From a virus (lineage: Duplodnaviria; Caudoviricetes): a stretch of 64,000 nt of DNA. Below are positions 7,065-47,539 of the stretch, in pieces. The number at the start of each line of letters is the position of its first letter. The stretch's first letter is position 1. The stretch is taken from the IMG/VR virus record IMGVR_UViG_3300027374_000478, positions 1 to 64,000 of that record; one strand, written 5' to 3'. Position numbers and translations under genes: made by a program. The notes beneath the pieces were generated by a model. It saw only the letters and a program-made list of their open reading frames with translations. It did not search any database and had not been told where the DNA came from.

Positions 7065-9232
7065 CTAAATCCTATATTTTCTCAGTGAACTTCCACCAGA
7101 CATTTCACCTACAGTCGCAGCCTGAATTGCACCCACAAAATTTTTATTATGCATCAAATCGTGTGGCACGCGCTCCATGAATTCATCGTAGTTCGTAACA
7201 TTGGGCAGATTCATGGTCAGGTGGATCTCATTATTAGCTACATTGTTATTCTTAATATTACTAATATTTTGCATTGCGGTTTTTAAGCTCTCTGCTCCGA
7301 GATTTCCTGCAATGTGAGTAGGTGATGTTGTTAATAATGTCCGAAGTGTTTCCATCTGCTTTTGACTAACGACCATATCTCCAGCACCTAACGGAGTAAG
7401 CACTGCGCCATCAGATTTTCTGATGATAGCCTCTGGCTTGTTGTTTTCCTGTGTCCATGCTAACTGGTCATGTGGGACATTCATCGTACCTTTAGCATAT
7501 CCTTTAAGCTGACTTAAGTTTACCCATCCTAAGTTGCCGCTTCCGTACTTTTTCCCAGTGCTGATATGGTAGGGCTTTTTAGCGCCTTTCTTAATCTTTG
7601 TAATATATACAGTGTCCCCTTTGTGTTTGTTTCCAGAAGAACCTGTACCATTACTGTTTTTAAAATAATTTCCACTTTTGTAAGTAACAATGTCGCCTAC
7701 TTCTGCTTTGCCGTTTGGTTTGTATTTTGGGTCATAAATTAAGTTGGTAGTAGCTTTCTTGGTAGGCGAGGTAGTGATTGGCTTTCCTACACCTGATAAC
7801 ATCGATGAAATATTGCTTGCCATATCATTCGATGCAGAACTTGAAGCATTATCAGAAAACACCTTCATGCTTGCAAGCGTATCCAACCGTGTGATCATGT
7901 TTTGGATATTTACATTTATTAATCCCAAGGTGTTATTTACGGTCGTAGCAGCAGACTCAATACCTGTCTGTAAATTATCGCCATAAGTAGTCAATACATT
8001 GGAAAGTTCCCCTGTGCTGGTATTCCAAATCTGCTCCATGGATGTTGATAAATCATAACCCACAGAATCAGCCTTTTCAGAAAGGGTAGTATTGATTGAT
8101 GATGCATTTTCGTTAATCTTTGCGATCATATCTGATATCAGCATTTCGATATCATCTAACCGCTTATTTAAGATTTCCTCATATTCATCATACAAGGTAT
8201 CAAGCATCTTTTTTTGGTCAGACACATATTTATCATATTCAGTTTCTTCCAGATTGTCTTTTGCTTCTTCCAGAGATACTTTATATTCCTGGATTTTGGC
8301 TTTAGCTTCTTCAGAATTGTCACCTTGGTAAGCGTCTAATATCTTCTGTAAATTAGCAATCTCTTTTGTCTGCTCTTTGACGCGCTTCTGATAGTCATAT
8401 AAATCCTTCTGTGCATCCAAGGCTTCTGTATAGGTGTCGATCAGCTCTCTCAAAGAATCCAGTTCTTTTTCAATTCCGTCTTCCACCATATCCTTGATCG
8501 CCTGTTTCTCGTCTTCGGCAGCGAGGATCATATCCTGTTGCAACTCAAGAAGTTCCTGTCTGCGTTCGACCAGTTCCTTGTCATATGGGTCTTCAGCAAT
8601 CTGTTTATCAAGATTATCTATTTCTTTATCATACCTGTCAGCTTGTGCCATGTACACATTGTAATTCATGCCGTGCAAGCCCATAGTAGTAAGCCCCTCG
8701 TTAGTGAGCTGTCCTTTGTCGTTATAAAGCTCCTCATTGCTCAAAAGCTCTGTAAGGAACTTGGATTCGTCTATGATATGGGAAATCTTGCCCTGTAGCA
8801 GATCAAATACTTCCCAACTGATATCACGTATGGAGTTGCCATATTGTATCATGGCTGTATTGGCTTCTTCAATTGAAAGGGTAACATCATCAATCTGGTT
8901 GCACATTTCGTACCAAGCTTCCGATTCTTTTTTAATAGCACCGCTGCTGACAGCTTCATTGAGTGATTTTGTCAAATCAGCTTTTTCTTTCTGAAGTTTA
9001 GAAATATTATTCCGCTCATTATCCATAAGAGCTTCATAGTATTTAATACTTACAATATATCCTTTTTCTTCAGCCTGTGTGATGGATTCATCAAGCATGT
9101 TCTTTTTATTCTCGATAATTGCCAAGATGCTATCATATTGTGATACAACATTATTGAAAGCTGTCTCGTATAATTCGCTAACCTTTTCATTCAGCTCCTC
9201 AACTGCATCACGGCAGTCTAACGCTTTTTCAT
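7065..9232 (-). CDS. Tape measure protein, exon 3
   Basis: Splice TGG T|AT GAA AAA GCG TTA GAC TGC gives QQWYEKALDC, in frame with ORF 7065..9125; coiled-coil plus C-terminal GYAKGT / AWTQE..PEAI motifs. Confidence 0.9.
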
Positions 9233-9399
9233 CATTGTCTTTACATAGTTCGCTACACTATGCGAGTTATCAAAACTCCCCATACTTTCATATGGCATGG
9301 GACTATATCTTCTATCTGTTAAATATTTTTGTGCATAATAAAAGAGCAGGAGAGTATTAATTTTCCTACTCTTTTTATTCTATCTAGTCAACTAAAGTC

Positions 9400-9921
9400 T
9401 CAATCATTCGCTTTATATGACAAAGCTAAATTTTCCATATCTTTAAAATCAATACATCTTTTTGCCAAATCACTATCCGGTTTATCATATTTATTATTAT
9501 AAACTTTTAAAGCAACTTTATCTAAATCCATTGTATTAATAACTTTTAATTCTGTTCGCATTAAAGATATGTATTTACTTTTTTCTTTTTCATTCTTAAA
9601 TGTTCTATGTTTGTCTAAATCCTTATATTGTAATTTATTATATATATTTTTAGGAATTGGGAACATATAGTTTAAATTGATTACAGCAATTAATCTATTA
9701 CTTTTTGGATCAAAAATTTTCTTAAAATCCTCATTGGCTTTCATTTTAAAATGCTTTTGTTTAGGATGAGATACTTGTGTAACATAATAGAAGTCATCAG
9801 TTTCAAACAATACTCCAAAAAATGGCTTATATTTATTATTTCCATAATCTGATTTTGGTATTCTGTTTTCTTTACTCCTAAGATAATTCAAATAATTTTC
9901 ATCAATGACAAGCCATTCCAT
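9400..9921 (-). CDS. toxN: Type III toxin-antitoxin endoribonuclease ToxN/AbiQ family
   Basis: YLNYLR...KPFFGVLF...YYVTQVSHPK...INLNYMFPIP motifs; preceded by repeat array and terminator. Confidence 0.88.
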   Translation of the reverse strand: MEWLVIDENYLNYLRSKENRIPKSDYGNNKYKPFFGVLFETDDFYYVTQVSHPKQKHFKMKANEDFKKIFDPKSNRLIAVINLNYMFPIPKNIYNKLQYKDLDKHRTFKNEKEKSKYISLMRTELKVINTMDLDKVALKVYNNKYDKPDSDLAKRCIDFKDMENLALSYKAND

Positions 9922-9947
9922 AATTTATCTCCTGTAAATTAACTTAT

Positions 9948-9974
9948 AAAAAGAGATAGTTTCCTATCTCTTTT
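9948..9974 (-). terminator. Intrinsic terminator between toxI and toxN
   Basis: AAAAGAGATAG-GAAA-CTATCTCTTTTT hairpin plus U tract. Confidence 0.85.
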
Positions 9975-9978
9975 CTAA

Positions 9979-10071
9979 ATTAATACGGTTTTATAGGCTC
10001 CGTAACCTCTATTAAGATAGTTTTAAGGTTCTATAACCTCTATTAATACGATTTTAAATGGATTCGTAACC
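9979..10071 (-). ncRNA. toxI: ToxI antitoxin RNA, ~3 diverged 30-32 nt pseudoknot repeats
   Basis: Units start at 9979, 10011, 10042; e.g. AGGU-UACGG-A-GCCU...CCGUA forms an H-type pseudoknot, with compensatory changes between units. Confidence 0.85.
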
Positions 10072-10106
10072 AGCTTAAATTGAAAACAATTTGTTTTCTT
10101 GAAGAT

Positions 10107-10135
10107 AGTATATGTTTAAAAAAACTGAATGTCAA
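10107..10135 (-). promoter_or_regulatory. Sigma-A promoter of toxIN
   Basis: TTGACA-17 nt-TATACT. Confidence 0.85.
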
Positions 10136-10589
10136 TACTTTTTATTGTTAAACTTTTATAAAATTTATTATTTTTTTATTAATAAAATGCTTTTTATCCT
10201 TTTATAATTATTTTGATCAATAGATTTTCTTTTTCAATCAGAACTTACATTTATTATATTATTTCTTTTTCATTTTAACAGATAGTCTATATTTTCGAAC
10301 TGCCAATCGCTTGCAGCCCTACATTAAGGCTTTCGCCGCCAATTTAGGCTAGTCTCTGAACGTCTTCCATCAGCATAACCCGTTAAGGAAGTTCGCTGCG
10401 TCTGGGTGACTTGCACACCCGGTTGCCCCTGGTCTGATTACTTTTTATGGTTTCTATCTGCTTGCACATGCAGACTGTAAGCTATAAGCCTATACCGCAT
10501 TCACGCTCACCGTTTCCAGTCACGTTGTAGCGAATCAGATATTATGGGGGTTCCCCGCAATAAAATAGATTAAGTGGCGTGAAAAATTC

Positions 10590-13500
10590 ACCACTGTTGA
10601 TATTCTTTGATTCTATTTGCTAGTTTCTCGTTTTTGATGGTGCTGATATCAATCTTACCTTCTCTAACTTTCTTGGTCAGAGATTTCCATGTTGACTTTT
10701 TATAACCATCATCTTTAGCTTTCTTGAGTGCTGTTTTATTTACTTTCGCAGCTTCCTGTTTATACCGTTTAAAACCCTTCTGTTGTATGGTGATTTCTTT
10801 GTTTACCTTGGAAAGCTCACTCTTGAGATTTTTGTTTCTGTCAGACCATGCTTTGTATGCACTGCTTGCTTTTAAGTCTAAGCTGTCTATTGCGCGTTCG
10901 ACACGATTGATTGCTACCTCAATCCAATCAAAAGCTTCTTTTGCTTTCTTAGCATCTTTTGTGGCTTGTTTAGATTTTTTGTTTGAAGTATTTTTACTTT
11001 TTGGAGTTGTTTTCTTTGTGGTCTTCTTCTTAGTAGTAGATGAACTCGCAAAAAGTTTGCGTCCACCATTCCTCGATGCATAAGCTGTACCCTCTAAATG
11101 GGCTGTGCCGCTTAATCTTGCTGCACCTCTGGATGGAGTAAAACCGTTCTTAAGTAATTCTTTGGTCTGCTTTGCGTTAAAAACTACAGATCCAGCAGGA
11201 ATATGAGAGAACTCAGCTCCGTTATCACCCACTGTCCACCAGCGATTGCCATACACTACCATTTCTTGACCCAATTCACCTGTTAAAGCATCTTCGCTTT
11301 TTTTGGTTTTCCAATTTGGATTTAACCACGTTTCGTCATCAAGTGTTCCATGTGCAAGAGCGCGTCTGGACAATTTGGGAATTGGATATAATCCGCCCGT
11401 CTTTTTTGATACTTCTTTTTGGCTAAGTGGGAGAGTAGTAGAGGTTTTATCTTTAACTGTTCCTTCTTTGTGAGCGGTTCCGTTTAATTGAGCTGTTGTC
11501 TTTACAAAACTCTTACTACCACCAAACGTTTTTAATGCATTTTTGACTTTATTAACTGCATTTGATACTGTATCTGAAACAGTCGCACTAATAGTTATCT
11601 TCTTGTCTTTTACTCCTGCTAATGCGTTCTTAGCTGACGTAGCTTTTGGAGTAACACCATCAGTAGCAGTCATATTTGTTTTGGTCTTCTTGGGAACCTT
11701 CTTTGTCTCTTTAACTACTTTTTTAGCAAGCCCAGACACATCATCAGAAGCTAAAAATTTTGTGATCTTTTCTTTTGGTATTCCTGTTATCTGTGATAAA
11801 ACAGTAGCTAATACACCAGAAGCACCGTCACTGGCATTGATTTCAGTAATTTTTTCTTCTGGTATTCCGCTGATTTCAGAAAGTACCTTGATTGTTGCGT
11901 CACTGGCTTTGTCTTCAGCTAATAGTTCAGTTATGATTTCTTTCGGGATTCCGGTAGAAATGGAAATCATACTTTCGAGTGCTGATGTAGCTTCATCATT
12001 AACCTTTGCGTTGATTTCTATATCTTTTGGGTCGATATCCAATATGTCTGCTATATCTTCTTTTGCCAATCCAGTAGATTCTTTAATAGCCTCAAATGCT
12101 TTGTCGGCTTCTTTTGACTTTAAGAAACTATCCCAGTCAACGGCCTTATTATCAGAGTAAGCATCCTGGAAAGCGTTTTGCAAGTCATAAATAGCAGATA
12201 TCTGGTCTTGAATTTTCGCACGGGCATTTTCATCTTTAACATCGCCAAATTTTGATTGTAAATCCTTAACCTTCTGAGACGCATTGGCATATCCTTTGCT
12301 TATAGACTCATCGTATCCCGTTTCCTTTTCACGTTTGTCCCTATATTCAGATTTCTTAGCGTTCAGAGCTGCTTTTTGTGTATTGTCTCCTTCGCTTGCC
12401 AATCTCTGCAACTGGTCTATCTCTGACTGAATTTGAGCCATACTGTATTCAAACTCGATATGAACAATCTGGTCTTCTGAAAGAGAAGATAAATCATCCT
12501 GGTACTTAGCGTACTCTTCATCCCAATTATTGATAAGTCCGTCAAGACGTTCCTTTCCAGCTCCCTCGCCCATGGAATCACGGAGAGATTTGATATTATT
12601 CAGGGTATTCTCATACCTTGTAATACTTTCTCCACTAAATGTCACATCATCCCACTCAAATCCATAGGATTCAAGATTGCGCAACAATGTTTCCGTAGCT
12701 TCAAGACTCATCTTCATTTTTTCTGCTGCTTCAGCAGTATTGTCGAACGTTCCCGTAAGCCCAGTTTCGTCTTCCTTTAACAGTCCTTTATCAATCAATG
12801 CATTCTGGAAGTTTGCAGCACTTCTTTTTGGATTTTCAGCATCAAAGAATTTCTTATATAGCTTTTCTGCGTCTTTGTATTTCTTTTCATAGACATCAGC
12901 AACATATTCAAGGTCGTCATTCTTTTTGAGTTCCTTTTTTACGCTGAATTTAGGGAGTACCCATTCAATAGACTTCTGTAGGTCGTCGGTTCCCCATTTA
13001 TCCTGTTTTGCAAGCTCTCTAGCCTGTGTAGCGTAATCGGCAAATTTTTTCCAGTCAGCATCTTTGTTTTCAGATTTAAAAGCTTCATCTACGTCTGACA
13101 GGGTAGTACCAAGTATACTAGCTTTTTCTTTTGCTTGTTCTGCTGAGTTTGCAACATTCTGGAAGTATTTGATGAAATTATCTTGTGACACTCCGATATC
13201 ATCAAGAGAAAGTCCCAGTTCTTTGAACTTACGGAGCGCATCTTCTGCATTTCCACTTTCGGCAACGATGTTGTTAAGATAATCTCCGATGGCATTTCCA
13301 GCAGTGGAAGAGAAGAAGGAGTCTAAGGATTTGAGTTCTTTTTCGGCGGGAAGCAACCCCATATTCCCGATTGCGTCATATGCAGATTTTACTTCGTTAA
13401 ATTCATCTTCAAATCCTTTTAACGCATCTAATCCTTCGCCATTTACAGAAACCGCTGACAATAATTTATCCAGGTCAACTTCTTTGCTATCTAAATCTTC

Positions 13501-14286
13501 TGTTAGTTTTTCGATTGCCGTATTATAGCTTTCAATATCTTTTTCTGACTGTTTCCATTCTTTTGATTTTGGATCAAGTTCAGACATAGATTTTTCTAAG
13601 TTGGAAATTTTATTTTCGTAATCTTCAATAGCAGCAATATTTTCTTTGACAGCAGTAGCAACATTAACATTACTGACCGTTCCCTGATAAGTCTTTTTGC
13701 CACCAGGAACTTGCTGTGCCACTTGTTGTGCTACAGATTGTTTCCCTCTATTTAATGCGTCTTTTGCATTGTAAGCAGCATCCTTTTGTTGAGATAAAGA
13801 TAATCTTTCTTTTATAGAAAGCTGAGATTCAAGTTTGCTGTTTGTTTCGGAAATTTTGTCAATTTCAACCTGATCTATTAATTGGATTTTTCCACTTTCG
13901 TTTAATTTTCCAATTTTCTCATCAATAGAGTCAATGCCACTTAAATCTACATTATATTTTTCTCCCAAAGATGAGAGGGTAGATTTGTATTCTTCTGCTT
14001 GAGATTTTAAGTTTTCTACCTCAGATTTTGTGCTATTTAGTCCATCTAAATGCTCTGATGTGTTTTTTATCGCAGAATCATAGGACAAGTTATACGCATC
14101 GGACAGTGCTTGTATTGCTTTGTACATTGCATAGGTTGTTCCAATGGTCGTTATTGCTTGACCTTTGAATGTGGACATAAAAGAACCTATACTTTTCCCA
14201 AGAGCATTAAAAGTTAATGATAGTGCGCTTTTGGTTCCTAATCCACTCTGAAAAATTGTAAATAGTTCAAATACTCTTTTAAACTG
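10590..14286 (-). CDS. Tape measure protein, exon 2
   Basis: ORF 10588..14178 stays open 36 codons upstream to CAG at 14286 (QFKRVFELF...); helical TMP repeats, ALTGELGQEMV and FDWIEV motifs. Confidence 0.88.
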
Positions 14287-21040: not shown

Positions 21041-21704
21041 AATAGCTTCCTCCTTAGTACAAATACTATTGAGTATTATACAATAGAGTTCACTATATTT
21101 CTATAAAATCAAAATAAATAAATGCAATCGGATTAATTAAATACCCCTGTCAAGACCAAACAGCATTAAGGACACACTTCTTAAAAAGCGATCCGAAGAT
21201 TATATTGGTTAACGACTCTTAACATAGCCGTCCTATCATCGCACGAGATAGAAGACCGTTCCAACATTAAGGATTGCGAATCCTAGTGGATTACCACCAT
21301 TTTGTTATTTTACCTTGGACTATACATTATAAGCAAATACAATAAGGTCTGTATTTACTCAGAGGATCGGTAGTCTCTGAACATCCCCCTATATCATAAT
21401 GATATATTGGTGTGCTGCTGATTAGTTAATCGGTTGCAATAACAACATACAACCTTTGCCCTTATTCTAGGTACTTAGGAGCATCGTCCCGATGCCTTTT
21501 ATTTCACCTTATACCATCTCATTAATTTTTTCTGCTTTCGCTGCATATCACGCTTACCATTTTCAGATTACGTTGTAGCTTAATGAGCATTAGGCTTCCC
21601 AGTCAAGTTACTCCTCCAGTTTTAGAACATGACACCACACAATTGTACATGATACCATATTTGTCATTTCCTTTTGTGTAGATTAGACCAGTTTAATAAA
21701 ACAA

Positions 21705-23609
21705 ATCTAGGTTCCTGAATAATTTAATACCGCCAATAGTGGCGAATAGTGTAGGTAATGCGCCTCCGACATCTATAATTTTTGTTAATACATTTAAAAA
21801 TTCTGATCCTGTATCAATCGCACCTTTTAAGAAGTCAGAATTAAATGCAACATTTGAAAATTCTTGGAACTGACTGCGGAACTGCTGGATTTTTGCTTCC
21901 ATACTTTGCATCCATCGGTCTTGTTCCTTTTGAGCTGAACCTTCAGCATTTAAAGTCGCTTCATAAGCTTTTTGTATTTGTCCGGATTTAAAAGCCTGTA
22001 AAATAGCGGCACCTTGATTACCTCTGTTTTTACCGAACATGGTTTCAAGCAAATCAGCTTGTTCTGTTTGTTCCAAATTGTCATATACTTTTGAAACGTC
22101 TTCTAATATATCATAGTAATCTCTAAACTTAGTTGAATCAGCAGAATCCATTATGTTGACTTGACCCTTTGTGAGATTTAAAATGTGCGTTTGAATTTTG
22201 CTGACAGATTCTAAGCCGTCCGATTCTTCGCCTAGAGCTTCCAGATCGCCCTTCATACCTTGAATGCGCATCTGTCCAATTTTTAAAGCATTACCAAGTT
22301 CTCCAGCAGATTGTGTGATTTCTGATCCGCCCGTTAATAAAGCTAACGCCTTGTTTAAATCAGTTCCACCTAAAGATAGCATGGATGCAGCATGTGACAT
22401 TCCTTCGCCCAAATCTTTAGCTGATGTCGCAAATTCATTTCCAAGTTTATTATATTTATCTACAATAGACAAAGCATTATCATAACTAATGTCATAAGCT
22501 TTCATGACAGTTACTAAGTCACTTACAGCGGTTTTGTCATCGACTTCGCCAACATTAGAATAAATAGAGCTTATTTTGGAAAGTCTTGCACTTTGCTCCA
22601 TAGTGTAGCCAAGTTTTGCCCATTCGCTAGTTTGCGTTATATATGATGACATGTCTCGTCCGATTGACTTAGAGATATTTCCGGCATTATTCAGAAAATC
22701 ATTATATTTAGATGTGGTTTCATCTGTAACCTTATACAAATTGGTCATAGCAGTATCAACACTTAACACTTCATTTGCCATTTGTTTCAATACATAGGGT
22801 ATTCTCTGGATAGCCCCATAAGTAAGTGCAAATTGCCCAATCTGTTTAAATCCACGATTCATTTCTGCAAAAAAACTTTTCCCATTCAATCCCTGGGAAG
22901 AAATAGTAGATTTTAAGTTTTTGAATTCATTGTCAAGTTTAGCTTTATCGGCAACAGTTGTAGCTTGTCTATATCGATTTTCTAAATCTTTTAATTCTAT
23001 TCCGTATTTTTTAACAGCTTTAGAATTATCTTCATAATATTTCTTTACTGCATTTGCCGAACGTTCTGCCACTCCGATATCAAGTGTTTTTGACCCTGTG
23101 TTACGGATTTGTGTCATTATATTATCAAATCTTTCTGCGGCCAGCGTCATATCATTAAAAGAATTTACAAACTCTTTATTATCAAGTTTAAATGAATTGT
23201 TAGAATCAAAATGTGCTTTTATCTTACTGAGTGTAGAATTGTATGCTTCAGCTTCTTTTCTGGCGGCTTTTACTAAATCAGAATCCTGTCCACTATATCC
23301 AGAAAGCTTATTTTTCATGACAGATGATTTTGCGTCATAAGCCCCATTTAAAATTTTATGTTGAGCATTAGAAATTATTTTTGAATACATTTCGGCTTGT
23401 TTTGTTGAAGACCTTATAGAATTATTGGCGGCGTTTTGTATTTGTCTTCCTATATTATCAACATTAAGATTCCTAAAACCTTTGTCATCAAATTTTATCT
23501 TAATTGTTTTATTATTAAGACTATTGATTTTATTTTCTATTTGTGTTAATTTTTCAAAACCTAGTAGTTTGGCGTGTATGTTAACATTATAATCTGCCAA
23601 AACATTCAC
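21705..23609 (-). CDS. Tape measure protein, exon 1 (TP901-type core)
   Basis: VDTAMTNLYKVTD...EWAKLGY...LGNEFAT...GNALK; ends FRNLD at the 5' splice site; start may be TTG 23600. Confidence 0.92.
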
Positions 23610-26204: not shown

Positions 26205-27374
26205 TTAAAATCCATTCTTTAATTTTTCTTTGTACGAATCGTTGATGAGTTCCATAGAAATTTCCACTTCGCCATTTTCTAATTTATTATCACGTAAAAT
26301 CGTTTCATAGTCTTCGTAAAACATCCATTTTAATTTTGTGCCATCTTTTAATTTGCCAGAACTTTTAGTTTTTCCCTTACAACAATATAAAATGTCAGAA
26401 GAACTTGAAATATTATAAAAGTTAGCTGCTTTCTTTAAAGAATCAAAAATTTTATTAGTTGTCAAACAGATTACTTTTCTTTTATGGGAATTTTTGCATT
26501 TATACAAATATGCTTCAACATCCTCACTTGACATTTTAATATAATCATCATACCATAAAAAATGTTTTCCCTTTACGGATTTAAGAAGAAATTCACTCTT
26601 ACCATTTTTGGCAGTATATTCTAATTGTGAGCATATATTATATATACTGCTTTGACTAACATTATGTTGTAACGCTGCATCATATGAACTATTATATATT
26701 TGCTTGTTTTCTATGCAATACACCAATCTTGTTGTTGGTAAATCTCCATGATATTTTTCTAAATGTTTAACTGATAATCCCAACCATTTTTCAAATTCCT
26801 CTTTTGTATTATTGCCTCTGCCATATATACTATGAAAATTATAATGGCAATTATGACATAATGTTACAGCATTAGTTTCATCTGTTCTTCCTTTTTTGTA
26901 CCAGTTATATCCATTTAAATGATGAACTTCTAAATTTTCATGTGTTTTGCCACAACATAAACACGTAAATTTGTCTCTATTTAATACTTTTTTTATAAAA
27001 TCAGTATATTCTCTGTAATTTCTTGAAATTTCTCTCTCTTCATCAGTTTTGTTTTTATTCCAACAATAATTTTTTTCTCCACCACAAAATACTTTTTTAC
27101 TACAAGCATTGCAATAACATAAACCATTATAATTATAATTAGTATAACGATGATAAGGGGCTTCAAATCGTTTTTTACAAAAATCACACTCTAACGTAAC
27201 TTTTGCGGTGCTATTTGGTGATAAATCCTTAACATTAACAATAATTTTAGTGCCTTTTTTAACAGTGTTTCCCCATTTGTGTTTAACTGTTGGAATATAA
27301 TACCCTTTTTCTCGATAGTATTTTATATTAGTGCCATGAGCAACGATTTCTGCCGTATTACTTATCAATCCCAT
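26205..27374 (-). CDS. Free-standing HNH endonuclease with NUMOD1-like repeats
   Basis: RDKFTCLCCG...LEVHHL...NAVTLCHNCH..FH; two VxC...IxxS..AA repeats. Confidence 0.85.
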   Translation of the reverse strand: MGLISNTAEIVAHGTNIKYYREKGYYIPTVKHKWGNTVKKGTKIIVNVKDLSPNSTAKVTLECDFCKKRFEAPYHRYTNYNYNGLCYCNACSKKVFCGGEKNYCWNKNKTDEEREISRNYREYTDFIKKVLNRDKFTCLCCGKTHENLEVHHLNGYNWYKKGRTDETNAVTLCHNCHYNFHSIYGRGNNTKEEFEKWLGLSVKHLEKYHGDLPTTRLVYCIENKQIYNSSYDAALQHNVSQSSIYNICSQLEYTAKNGKSEFLLKSVKGKHFLWYDDYIKMSSEDVEAYLYKCKNSHKRKVICLTTNKIFDSLKKAANFYNISSSSDILYCCKGKTKSSGKLKDGTKLKWMFYEDYETILRDNKLENGEVEISMELINDSYKEKLKNGF

Positions 27375-34730: not shown

Positions 34731-34908
34731 ATTTCCGATACCTCCTTTATAATTAGTGCGAGTTGGACATATGCCCAAAACCAACCCACGGTATCCCATT
34801 TATATAAAATCAGGAAGAGGGCAGTGGGTATCTGCTTTTCGTGAGCGACACTATCTTCCTGATTTTAAGCATAAAAATAGACAGTGTCTTTTCTAATATC
34901 CAAAAGGA

Positions 34909-46202: not shown

Positions 46203-46286
46203 TGGGCAGAAGAGGACTCGAACCTCTGATGTTTCTTGTGTGCCTGATTTACAGTCAGGTGCAGTCGCCGCTATGCATATCTACCC
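46203..46286 (-). tRNA. tRNA-Tyr(GTA)
   Basis: GGGUAGA/UCUGCCC, CCUGA-CUGUAAA-UCAGG, GGUUCGAGUCC. Confidence 0.85.
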
Positions 46287-46507
46287 ATGAAAATAGGAGA
46301 GTGCTGAAGACTCTCCTGAATTGTTTTGTCTTTCCAGAATGCCAGACCGTCCAGCAGTCATTCGCTAATTTATAAAAGCCACCACTATCAGAAATGGCTT
46401 TCAACCATAATCAATATGGTTATCTCCAAATAAAGGTCATCATTAACACAGATGAGTACGAACATCTTAACGATTTATTACTTTGAAATTGGAGTTCTAT
46501 TTGGCGG

Positions 46508-47539
46508 CTATACAAAAGCGTCGTCAGCATCTTCTTCATCTTCTCGTACAACATATATCTTTGTTGTCTCACTACTTTCATGACCTAATAACTTTTGAGC
46601 GGTTTCTATAGATCTGTTTTGATAGCATACAAGATTAGTTGCCCGTGAAGCTCTAAAAATATGTGGATTTATTCTACGTCCCATTATTTGAGTAAATAAC
46701 CCTTGACACCATCCATTAAATGTGTCTTCTCCTACTTGGCGAACATCACCATTTGAGTGTTTTATTACAAACATATAAGGACAATCATCATCGCCACGTA
46801 CTTCTAACCACTTGTCTAAGAATCTCTTTACATCTTCTCCGAATTGCAACTTACGAACTTTCCCTTGGCGACTACGTCCCTTACAACGAATATCATGTGT
46901 TTTATACGAAACGGATTCTACTTCGTGTTCAATTCCTTCTTCATCAGTAATTGTAATCATCTTTCTCTTTGGTTCATAATTCACAACCTCTTTAAGAAGC
47001 TGCCTGGCTTCAGCCCTACGACAGCCTGTTGAATATGTAAACTTAACATATGCCAATTTTTCCCATTCTTCACGCTTTTCTAATTCTTCACAAAGATAAT
47101 TAATTTCATCAGGAGTAAGAGGAATTTTTTCATGAACTTTTCCTGTTAATGCTATCCTTTGCTCTGTTGTCACATAATTCCGGAATAAAGGATATTCTTC
47201 CTCATAAAATGACTCTATAAATTTATTAAATGCACTAACAGACGATTTTTTAAATTTCATAGCAGAATCAGAAAGCCCACGATTATTTAACCAATTCAGA
47301 TATCTAAGAAATTCTTTTTTCTTAATTTCTGTACAATTCTTATCTCTTAGGTTCTCATGCACCCACCAAAAGTAAATTTTTAATGCGCTGGTATAACCAA
47401 TCAAACTTTTTGGAGATAAATGAGTTTGATTACTGAGGTAATCAGCGACCATATCTCTGTTAAATTTATTTACTTGCGACCACATTTCATCAGTTATTTC
47501 ATCAGATCGTTTAGCGATTTCTTCACCCAATAATCTCAC
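46508..47539 (-). CDS. Tyrosine recombinase
   Basis: STGCRRAE, HIFRASRAT, LLGHES..T..Y catalytic residues. Confidence 0.9.
   Translation of the reverse strand: MRLLGEEIAKRSDEITDEMWSQVNKFNRDMVADYLSNQTHLSPKSLIGYTSALKIYFWWVHENLRDKNCTEIKKKEFLRYLNWLNNRGLSDSAMKFKKSSVSAFNKFIESFYEEEYPLFRNYVTTEQRIALTGKVHEKIPLTPDEINYLCEELEKREEWEKLAYVKFTYSTGCRRAEARQLLKEVVNYEPKRKMITITDEEGIEHEVESVSYKTHDIRCKGRSRQGKVRKLQFGEDVKRFLDKWLEVRGDDDCPYMFVIKHSNGDVRQVGEDTFNGWCQGLFTQIMGRRINPHIFRASRATNLVCYQNRSIETAQKLLGHESSETTKIYVVREDEEDADDAFV

Follow-up and report, generated by a model that had tools for sequence, protein, structure and literature searches.

A group I intron in a provirus tape-measure gene, with a predicted ToxIN cassette in its P8 loop that probably serves lysogen defence or addiction

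The virus record IMGVR_UViG_3300027374_000478 (Duplodnaviria; Caudoviricetes) is a provirus of ~159 kb in IMG/VR, the host of which is probably a Lachnospiraceae-like gut bacterium. Its first 64 kb (64,000 nucleotides, nt) are the stretch analyzed here and are referred to as the window. Within the window, a tape-measure gene is interrupted by an insert of 1357 nt (10589..9233, minus strand), an IA-type group I intron whose P8 loop is occupied by a cassette of the ToxIN type, consisting of a repetitive RNA antitoxin (toxI) and the endoribonuclease toxin gene toxN. All intron features lie on the minus strand, and they are given below in the direction of transcription, together with the flanking exons.

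10590..14178, minus strand: upstream tape-measure exon, an open frame ending ...KEYQQW, with the U of a Tyr codon at 10590
10573..10595, minus strand: P1/P10 region, from sequence pairing; local fold of -8.4 kcal/mol
10286..10589, minus strand: 5' ribozyme part, with P1, P3, P4 with an inserted hairpin, P5 with a large P5 extension, and P6, continuing with the P7 5' strand, P7.1, P7.2 and the P3 3' strand
10274..10285, minus strand: P8 5' arm (CUAUCUGUUAAA), a 12-bp perfect inverted-repeat core
9324..10273, minus strand: P8 loop, the 950-nt ToxIN cassette, with a GC content of 23% (16-28%) against 46-50% in the ribozyme
10107..10135, minus strand: sigma-70-type promoter TTGACA-17-TATACT, the best of 11 promoter-like sites, 11/12
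10082..10098, minus strand: 5' hairpin of the cargo transcript (GAAAACA AAU UGUUUUC; AAGAAAAC...GUUUUC), conserved, from folding
9975..10071, minus strand: ToxI-type array of three units (33, 31 and 34 nt), delimited by hand
9949..9974, minus strand: terminator/attenuator between toxI and toxN, an 11-bp stem with a U tract; -17.1 kcal/mol, z -6.3
9400..9921, minus strand: toxN, 173 amino acids, with GGAG 8 nt upstream; PF13958 at 2e-42
9340..9375, minus strand: terminal terminator, from folding; -14.9 kcal/mol, z -3.9
9312..9323, minus strand: P8 3' arm (UUUAACAGAUAG), pairing with 10285-10274
9233..9311, minus strand: 3' ribozyme part, 79 nt, with the S element and P7 3' strand (9311-9300), P9 (GAAA loop), P9.1, P9.2 and the terminal G
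7065..9232, minus strand: downstream tape-measure exon, the AU of the Tyr codon followed by EKALDC...

The upstream open reading frame (ORF; 14178..10588, minus strand, 1196 codons) reads KEYQQW up to a TGA overlapping the 5' splice site; the downstream frame is open from 9230 to 7065 (722 codons). The downstream piece (9230..7068) matches positions 2255-2612 of the 2625 positions of the tape-measure family phrog_4211, and an N-terminal piece located farther upstream (23609..21693, minus strand) matches positions 493-942. Since these pieces correspond to successive parts of phrog_4211, the interrupted gene is a very long tape-measure gene. Removal of the insert gives CAG UGG U|AU GAA AAA GCG, which is in frame and reads QQW-Y-EKALDC, with the predicted ligated junction CAGUGGU|AUGAAAAAGCG (CAGUGGU-AUGAAAAAGC; as DNA CAGTGGT-ATGAAAAAGC). 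The C-terminal residues of the upstream exon align with uninterrupted homologues, and 19 such homologues from viral contigs are continuous across the junction. They read ...YQDWYEKAQDC... (...KEYQDWYEKAQDC..., ...KEYQDWYEKAQDCKDAIEEL...), or WY-EKA or WI-EKA in others, and ...LANKIKEYQDWYEKAQDCKDAIEEL... in the loci L047-L050 (L numbers denote related loci throughout). Because these homologues span the junction, the splice sites are fixed by protein homology together with RNA pairing.

For the RNA pairing, the exon end AGUGGU (10595-10590) forms P1 with the guide GCCACU (10578-10573), which lies 11 nt into the insert, with a U.G pair at the splice site. Directly 5' of the guide, UUUUUCA (10586-10580) pairs with UGAAAAA of the downstream exon (9231-9225) as a P10 of 7 bp, and the intron ends in the G at 9233. 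The R element (GUUCAGAGACUA, 10361-10350) and the S element (AAGAUAUAGUCC, 9311-9300) are a classical match and form P7 with a bulged A. The 12-bp inverted repeat was assigned to P8 because its helix ends immediately before the S element, and the DNA between its arms is thus the P8 loop. P7.1 and P7.2 are both present, which places the intron in subgroup IA.

The fold was assigned by homology to relatives that score on the Rfam family RF00028 and by covariation. In phages of Enterococcus, Serratia and Shewanella, genes for ribonucleotide reductase or RNA polymerase are split by intergenic gaps, to which a 33-40 nt stretch of the insert, CUACAACGUGACUGGAAACGGUGAGCGUGAAUG, is 92-100% identical. 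The gaps of these cargo-free relatives score 42-72 bits on RF00028, with the CUACAACGUGACUGGAAACGGUGAGCGUGAAUG-like stretch located within their P5 extension. In an alignment with RF00028-scoring introns, P3, P4, the P5 extension, Q and R succeed one another in the window as in those introns; the row of L032 is uninformative in this alignment. The covariation set comprised 23 distinct 5' halves, on which P3, P4, the inserted P4 hairpin, P5, P5a-c, P6, P7.1, P7.1a and P7.2 were drawn by hand. In this set 96.9% of the cells were paired, and changes on both sides occurred in 13 pairs, compared to 3.9 ± 1.5 in shuffles (0 of 500 reached 13) and 0-3 when the partners were slid. The alignment of the joined mini-intron held compensatory double changes in 15 of 81 column pairs. 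RNAalifold, run on the joined mini-intron, paired P1 wrongly with the P9.1 region and is unable to represent the P3-P7 pseudoknot; P1, P3, P10 and P9.1 were assigned by hand. P3 and P7 are invariant among the relatives, and the support for these two helices is their consensus fit only.

The cargo in the P8 loop begins with ~140 nt of AT-rich DNA in front of the promoter. The -10 box lies 6 nt upstream of the conserved 5' hairpin, and the same position is found in the intron-borne cassettes of L014, L108, L029 and L019 and in the free-standing cassette of L006; in L108, TTGACA is also 17 nt from the -10 box. Downstream of the hairpin, each unit of the array, for which Tandem Repeats Finder gave 2.5 copies with a period of 31, can form an H-type pseudoknot with a GGUU/AxCC stem and a 4-nt loop paired with a downstream tetramer. 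Stem 2 reads ACGA/UCGU, AUAG/CUAU and ACGG/CCGU in the three units and ACAG/CUGU in a repeat of L005, always complementary. Repeats of this family also lie in front of ToxN in L005, L006, L013, L014 and L108, free-standing relatives among them. A rule-based terminator scan reported none in the cassette; folding shows two stable hairpins with U-rich tails, which the scan probably missed because, by the rule it applies, the U tract is counted into the long A/U-rich stems. The terminal one (9375-9340) was absent from the feature list of the initial annotation, and its 3' half is kept in L032 and L062 despite their other cargo.

The toxN gene is the only sense ORF of at least 40 amino acids in the intron. 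Its product covers profile positions 1-157 of the 159 of PF13958 (2e-42) and matches the PADLOC model AbiQ (1.6e-17). Among solved structures in the PDB, it matched 7D8O (5e-7) and, by phmmer over its first ~90 residues, 2XD0 (3e-5). Residues K32, S51 and K54 align with K33, T52 and K55 of 2XD0, which we take to be catalytic, and K32, S51 and H52 are invariant in 13 relatives. The ratio of nonsynonymous to synonymous substitution rates (dN/dS) was 0.06 against the free-standing L101 (89% identical protein) and 0.13 against the intron-borne L108; for the near-identical toxN copies of the L014 type, the corresponding polymorphism ratio (pN/pS) is based on only 5 differences, too few to be informative. 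The closest ToxN proteins, 89% and 80% identical, are encoded outside introns. As far as its sequence can tell, the module appears to have every feature of a working ToxIN system.

These results agree with the initial annotation of this DNA in its details. It had placed a 12-bp inverted repeat (10274-10285 / 9312-9323) between the R and S elements, which is located there with a perfect core. It had described the repeat as enclosing a near-consensus sigma-A promoter, which was recovered as TTGACA-17-TATACT at 10135..10107 (11/12) with its position conserved in five other cassettes; three pseudoknot repeats, for which three units at 10071-9975 with a co-varying stem 2 were found; and a terminator and toxN, corresponding to the hairpin at 9974-9949 and the gene at 9921..9400 in the P8 loop. 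Its statement that splicing restores QQW-Y-EKALDC likewise stands, as the junction is in frame and the uninterrupted homologues agree at the sequence level.

A 19-mer around R retrieved the same intron from 24 viral contigs, the Lachnospiraceae genome MGBC000083 and 38 metagenome contigs (many of them from human gut); 13 of its matches were without the P3'/P8 motif of the family and were left out, being either different introns or fortuitous matches. With an exact 26-mer around R, nothing was retrieved from the viral contigs. The related contigs are 130-216 kb long, and about 45 complete homologous introns (~45) are distributed across two tape-measure-like sites. At site A, which is that of the window, L032, L062, L090 and L098, the exon and guide are AGUGGU/GCCAC(U/G), and P10 in the window is UUUUUCA/UGAAAAA. 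At site B, where most relatives are found, they are AGGGGU/GCUCCU, with UAUUU/AAAUA as P10, so that both the P1 and the P10 guides are altered in step with the site-B exon. P8 at site B is CUAUUUGAAU/AUUCAAAUAG, compared to CUAUCUGUUAAA/UUUAACAGAUAG in the window, with four compensatory positions, and P7.1, P9.1 and P9.2 are kept there with different sequences.

Wherever the interval from R to S is complete, a sense-oriented cassette of 0.9-1.25 kb with 23-32% GC occupies the P8 loop. ToxI repeats with ToxN are the cargo of the window and of the L014/L016 type (58% protein identity, ~5 contigs). Other cargo includes two TenpN-like toxins, which match NF047358 at 1e-19 and 1e-7, both below its cut-off; a PBECR4 nuclease (PF18813) at ~15 loci; and NYN RNases (PF01936; PADLOC HEC-09) of three kinds. 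At site A, L062:5420-6150 (Lachnospiraceae bacterium MGBC000083), L090 and L098 carry a pair of genes for an 85-aa protein (aa, amino acids; weak DUF5678) and a 156-aa retropepsin-like aspartyl protease (PF13650, 1e-8), in a ribozyme 91% identical to that of the window. One cargo ORF of 192 aa is without a family match. No homing endonuclease (LAGLIDADG, GIY-YIG, HNH, His-Cys or PD-(D/E)xK) was found in the window intron or in the cargo of the ~45 complete relatives. The possibility that the cargo ORFs of the relatives are unrecognized homing endonucleases was considered and rejected, as they match the ToxN, TenpIN, PBECR4, NYN and aspartyl-protease families. With nearly all of the ~45 introns holding toxin or RNase cassettes and 0 holding a homing endonuclease, this survey of P8 content supports the overall structural claim of the initial annotation, namely a group I intron with a complete ToxIN system in its P8 loop and without a homing endonuclease. 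The arrangement is a family trait and not a singular event.

Comparison at the same site shows how sharply the cargo is delimited. Up to and including the final base of the P8 5' arm, the window is 91% identical to L032 and L062; within the loop it is unrelated to them, and the likeness resumes 30-48 nt before the P8 3' arm, in a region that takes in the descending half of the terminal terminator. Among site-B introns, homology runs on through a 270-nt leader comprising the promoter and the 5' hairpin, after which the cassettes diverge. Cassettes thus turn over between almost identical ribozyme arms.

A third and more distant group I intron lineage was noticed in another tape-measure gene (L108:1100-2400 and L109-L112, including assembly GCA_948582745.1). 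The L108 intron has a canonical P4/Q (CUGCUGG/AAUCAGCA) and the R element GCUCAACGACUA. Its ToxIN has a toxin 75% identical to that of the window, the same promoter and a homologous leader. As the ribozyme of this lineage is distant and the cassette is nonetheless homologous, the ToxIN cassette occurs in different ribozymes.

Further observations concern the RNA that accompanies the other cargo. In the cassette found at ~15 loci, the drum RNA motif (RF02958, 71 bits; L019:1696-1802, plus strand) lies directly upstream of the PBECR4 gene. It is placed between the conserved promoter/5' hairpin and a terminator, in the P8 slot that is occupied by ToxI-ToxN in the sister intron L014. From this placement, drum may act with PBECR4 as its RNA antitoxin or as a partner. 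When this orphan motif was described in 2017, a terminator and a link to a neighbouring protein were noted, and it was given no function (PMC5737381). The TenpN-like and NYN genes (L029:9951-10466, L082:10204-10677, L030:1022-1705, L036:1389-1997 and L032:650-1597) each have a promoter, a leader and a terminator-like hairpin in front of them. Their leaders are structured and non-repetitive, a type III-like layout without tandem repeats, which makes them candidate new RNA-antitoxin systems.

Several other features of the record were also observed. The same tape-measure gene appears to be interrupted by a second, much larger intron (window 21692..~14287, minus strand), in which ...AACCUAGAU is followed by a core with the same P5-extension module, an R element (21381-21371), a short P8 and an S-like AAUGUAUAGUCC at ~21330-21319; the next exon frame resumes only at ~14.2 kb. 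The loci L044-L046, L057-L059 and L061, which are uninterrupted at the site of the window intron, have an S-like AAGATATAGTC ~650 nt upstream of the junction and may carry an intron elsewhere in the tape-measure gene. Among the structural genes lies an HNH-endonuclease-like ORF (window 26205-27374, minus strand; several PHROG HNH families, E 1e-14 to 1e-8), which could be a free-standing homing endonuclease able to mobilize neighbouring DNA in trans. Two tyrosine recombinase genes are present, at window 46203-47539 (minus strand) and at G000 84694-85206, one of them adjoining a tRNA gene (46286..46203), and an int-alpA RNA motif lies at 34861..34797. Two tyrosine recombinases fit a temperate lifestyle. 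An attachment site may lie in the record, or the record may be composite.

Taken together, sequence and comparison show an IA group I intron in a provirus tape-measure gene whose P8 loop houses an autonomous type III cassette, and we consider it likely that the cassette serves the lysogen for defence or addiction. Splicing, toxicity and defence are predicted here from sequence, and we infer that the intron persists through addiction or lysogen defence rather than through homing. This fits the family, because none of the ~45 introns has a homing endonuclease, nearly all have toxin or RNase cassettes, and the cassettes turn over. In a lysogen, the late operon would be silent, and the promoter of the cassette would yield an excess of ToxI and, through a leaky terminator, a little ToxN. 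ToxN would cut the repeat array into single units, which in turn would inhibit it, and the terminal terminator would keep the cassette transcript out of the 3' ribozyme part and the last exon. Once host transcription is shut off by an infecting phage, or once the DNA is lost, the labile ToxI would decay and the freed ToxN would cleave cellular and phage RNA, leading to abortive infection or post-segregational killing. During virion production, the 12-bp P8 stem would close the 950-nt loop and the ribozyme would excise the whole insert, at no cost to the tape-measure protein; the late pre-mRNA bears ToxI in sense and may add antitoxin. The intron would probably be retained as its cargo pays for it and as imprecise deletion would destroy an essential gene, and the conserved ribozyme halves could act as homology arms for cassette exchange by recombination.

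Several results weigh against this reading. RF00028 had no match to the intron, neither at the gathering threshold nor at E ≤ 10, in the whole window, in 9000-10800 or in the 5' half alone, the likely causes being the P8 insert of 950 nt and the length of the P5 extension. P4 is unusual in having its 3' strand broken up by a hairpin. Promoter-like sites do not exceed the number expected by chance in this AT-rich region; the promoter is supported by the conserved position of the -10 box and the 5' hairpin, not by the site count. Among the ToxIN loci of the window clade in viral contigs, 24 of 26 are free-standing, from which it follows that the intron is not needed for ToxIN function. Finally, both terminators stand in sense inside the intron and face the late transcript, with no antitermination device identified. 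The late transcript must therefore read through them to reach the last exon, and read-through, antitermination or inefficient termination at both must be assumed.

The alternative that survives best is selfish addiction only, in which the cassette would benefit neither host nor phage and would stabilize the intron and the prophage, as the long-lived ToxN would kill any cell or genome from which it is lost, be it through curing or through recombination with an allele lacking the intron. It would account for an intron that is widespread despite having no homing endonuclease, and a precise loss of the cassette needs a homologous intron-less template; ToxIN-type systems can, moreover, stabilize replicons. 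We nevertheless regard it as unlikely on its own, because diverse cassettes behind near-identical arms are less reminiscent of a single addiction module than of defence hotspots under diversifying selection, and because the NYN cargo matches the candidate defence family HEC-09. Addiction and defence are not mutually exclusive.

Improbable to a somewhat greater degree is a function confined to the lytic phase, such as the exclusion of co-infecting phages, the degradation of host RNA or the use of ToxI against a host ToxIN. Against it stand the host-type promoter and the terminators that belong to the cassette itself, the classification of the record as a provirus, its tyrosine recombinases, and the fact that a decoy would have no need of a complete toxN under purifying selection. 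What speaks for such a function is that the cargo is always sense-oriented, so that late transcripts carry ToxI and toxN, that the related 130-216 kb contigs need not be temperate, and that phages can escape ToxIN via ToxI-like repeats. Least probable is a dead intron, with splicing lost, the tape-measure gene split or dead, and ToxIN stranded in the relic of a defective prophage, as the missing RF00028 match and the internal terminators might suggest, since the exons are open and in frame over 1196 and 722 codons, the core pairings of the window are intact with compensatory changes between relatives and exact P1 and P10 matches to the exons, and the same design is kept in many independent contigs.

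Beyond the lysogen defence or addiction proposed for the window, a more general model can be offered tentatively, and with less confidence. The cassettes in the P8 slot, namely ToxI/ToxN, TenpN-like, drum RNA/PBECR4 and NYN, mostly have a type III layout of promoter, structured RNA, terminator and RNase. The P8 loop might be a dedicated slot for toxin cassettes exchangeable by recombination, and the ribozyme a 'safe harbour' in which temperate phages could house defence genes within an essential gene, making the intron a mutualist without a homing enzyme; as a corollary, drum might be the RNA antitoxin of PBECR4.

Group I introns of bacteria and phages are usually described as empty or as bearing a homing endonuclease, as in the td intron of T4 with I-TevI. 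The window intron resembles the latter in being a phage IA intron with a peripheral-loop ORF under its own expression signals and a stop codon just past the 5' splice site. It differs in that its ORF is an endoribonuclease toxin with an RNA antitoxin instead of a DNA endonuclease, with no homing mechanism evident. Prophage morons and defence hotspots of the P2/P4 type are autonomously transcribed, low-GC, exchangeable cassettes between conserved flanks. The P8 cassettes share with them the autonomy, the low GC, the exchangeability and the fixed position; the P2/P4-type cassettes lie between genes, whereas here they lie within an intron of a coding sequence. The ToxIN of Pectobacterium atrosepticum pECA1039 and AbiQ/antiQ of Lactococcus have the same promoter, tandem repeats of ~31-36 nt, terminator and ToxN-family endoribonuclease, but they are plasmid-borne and free-standing, whereas the module of the window lies in a ribozyme loop in an essential phage structural gene. 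The likeness of the window ToxN to the solved ToxN proteins is detectable only by sequence-profile search.

The closest intron precedents are from the Bacillus cereus group, in which prophage tape-measure genes hold the class IA group I introns TMP-IVS1/2/3 (Tourasse and Kolsto 2008, PMC2504315). Most of these are without a complete homing endonuclease, being ORF-less or carrying GIY-YIG or HNH genes, and that 2008 survey called the persistence and spread of such endonuclease-less introns puzzling (PMC2504315). Like the window intron, they are IA introns in prophage tape-measure genes with P1 and P10 adapted to different sites, as at sites A and B; they differ in that a P8 holding a promoter-driven toxin-antitoxin cassette is described for none of them. 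In the IStrons CdISt1 and BcISt1, a group I ribozyme makes an inserted cargo harmless (Tourasse, Stabell and Kolsto 2014, PMC4227781). Here too a ribozyme would render unrelated cargo harmless to the interrupted gene, and both occur in Firmicutes. The IStrons owe their mobility to an IS200/IS605- or IS607-type transposon at the 3' end, whereas the cargo of the window is a toxin cassette in P8 with no known mobility; no transposase ORF of these types was found in the window intron, whose 3' ribozyme part is only 79 nt. Thus IA tape-measure introns (PMC2504315), cargo-neutralizing ribozymes (IStrons, PMC4227781) and ToxIN are each already known separately. In a literature search that left most subscription journals outside its reach, no paper was found linking a group I intron with ToxN, type III systems or abortive-infection cargo.

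For the puzzle of how such introns persist, promoter-driven cassettes of toxin and RNA antitoxin with frequent exchange offer a testable answer, namely that the cargo pays for the intron. Defence hotspots of this kind, placed within a coding sequence, would be new. With ToxI-ToxN, drum-PBECR4 and leader-NYN in equivalent positions, the family provides a natural like-for-like comparison, and the shared slot hints at functions for orphan RNA motifs and at new candidates for type III-like systems. Two mechanistic questions arise as well, namely how the late transcript passes two intronic terminators and whether cutting of the P8 loop by ToxN would affect splicing.

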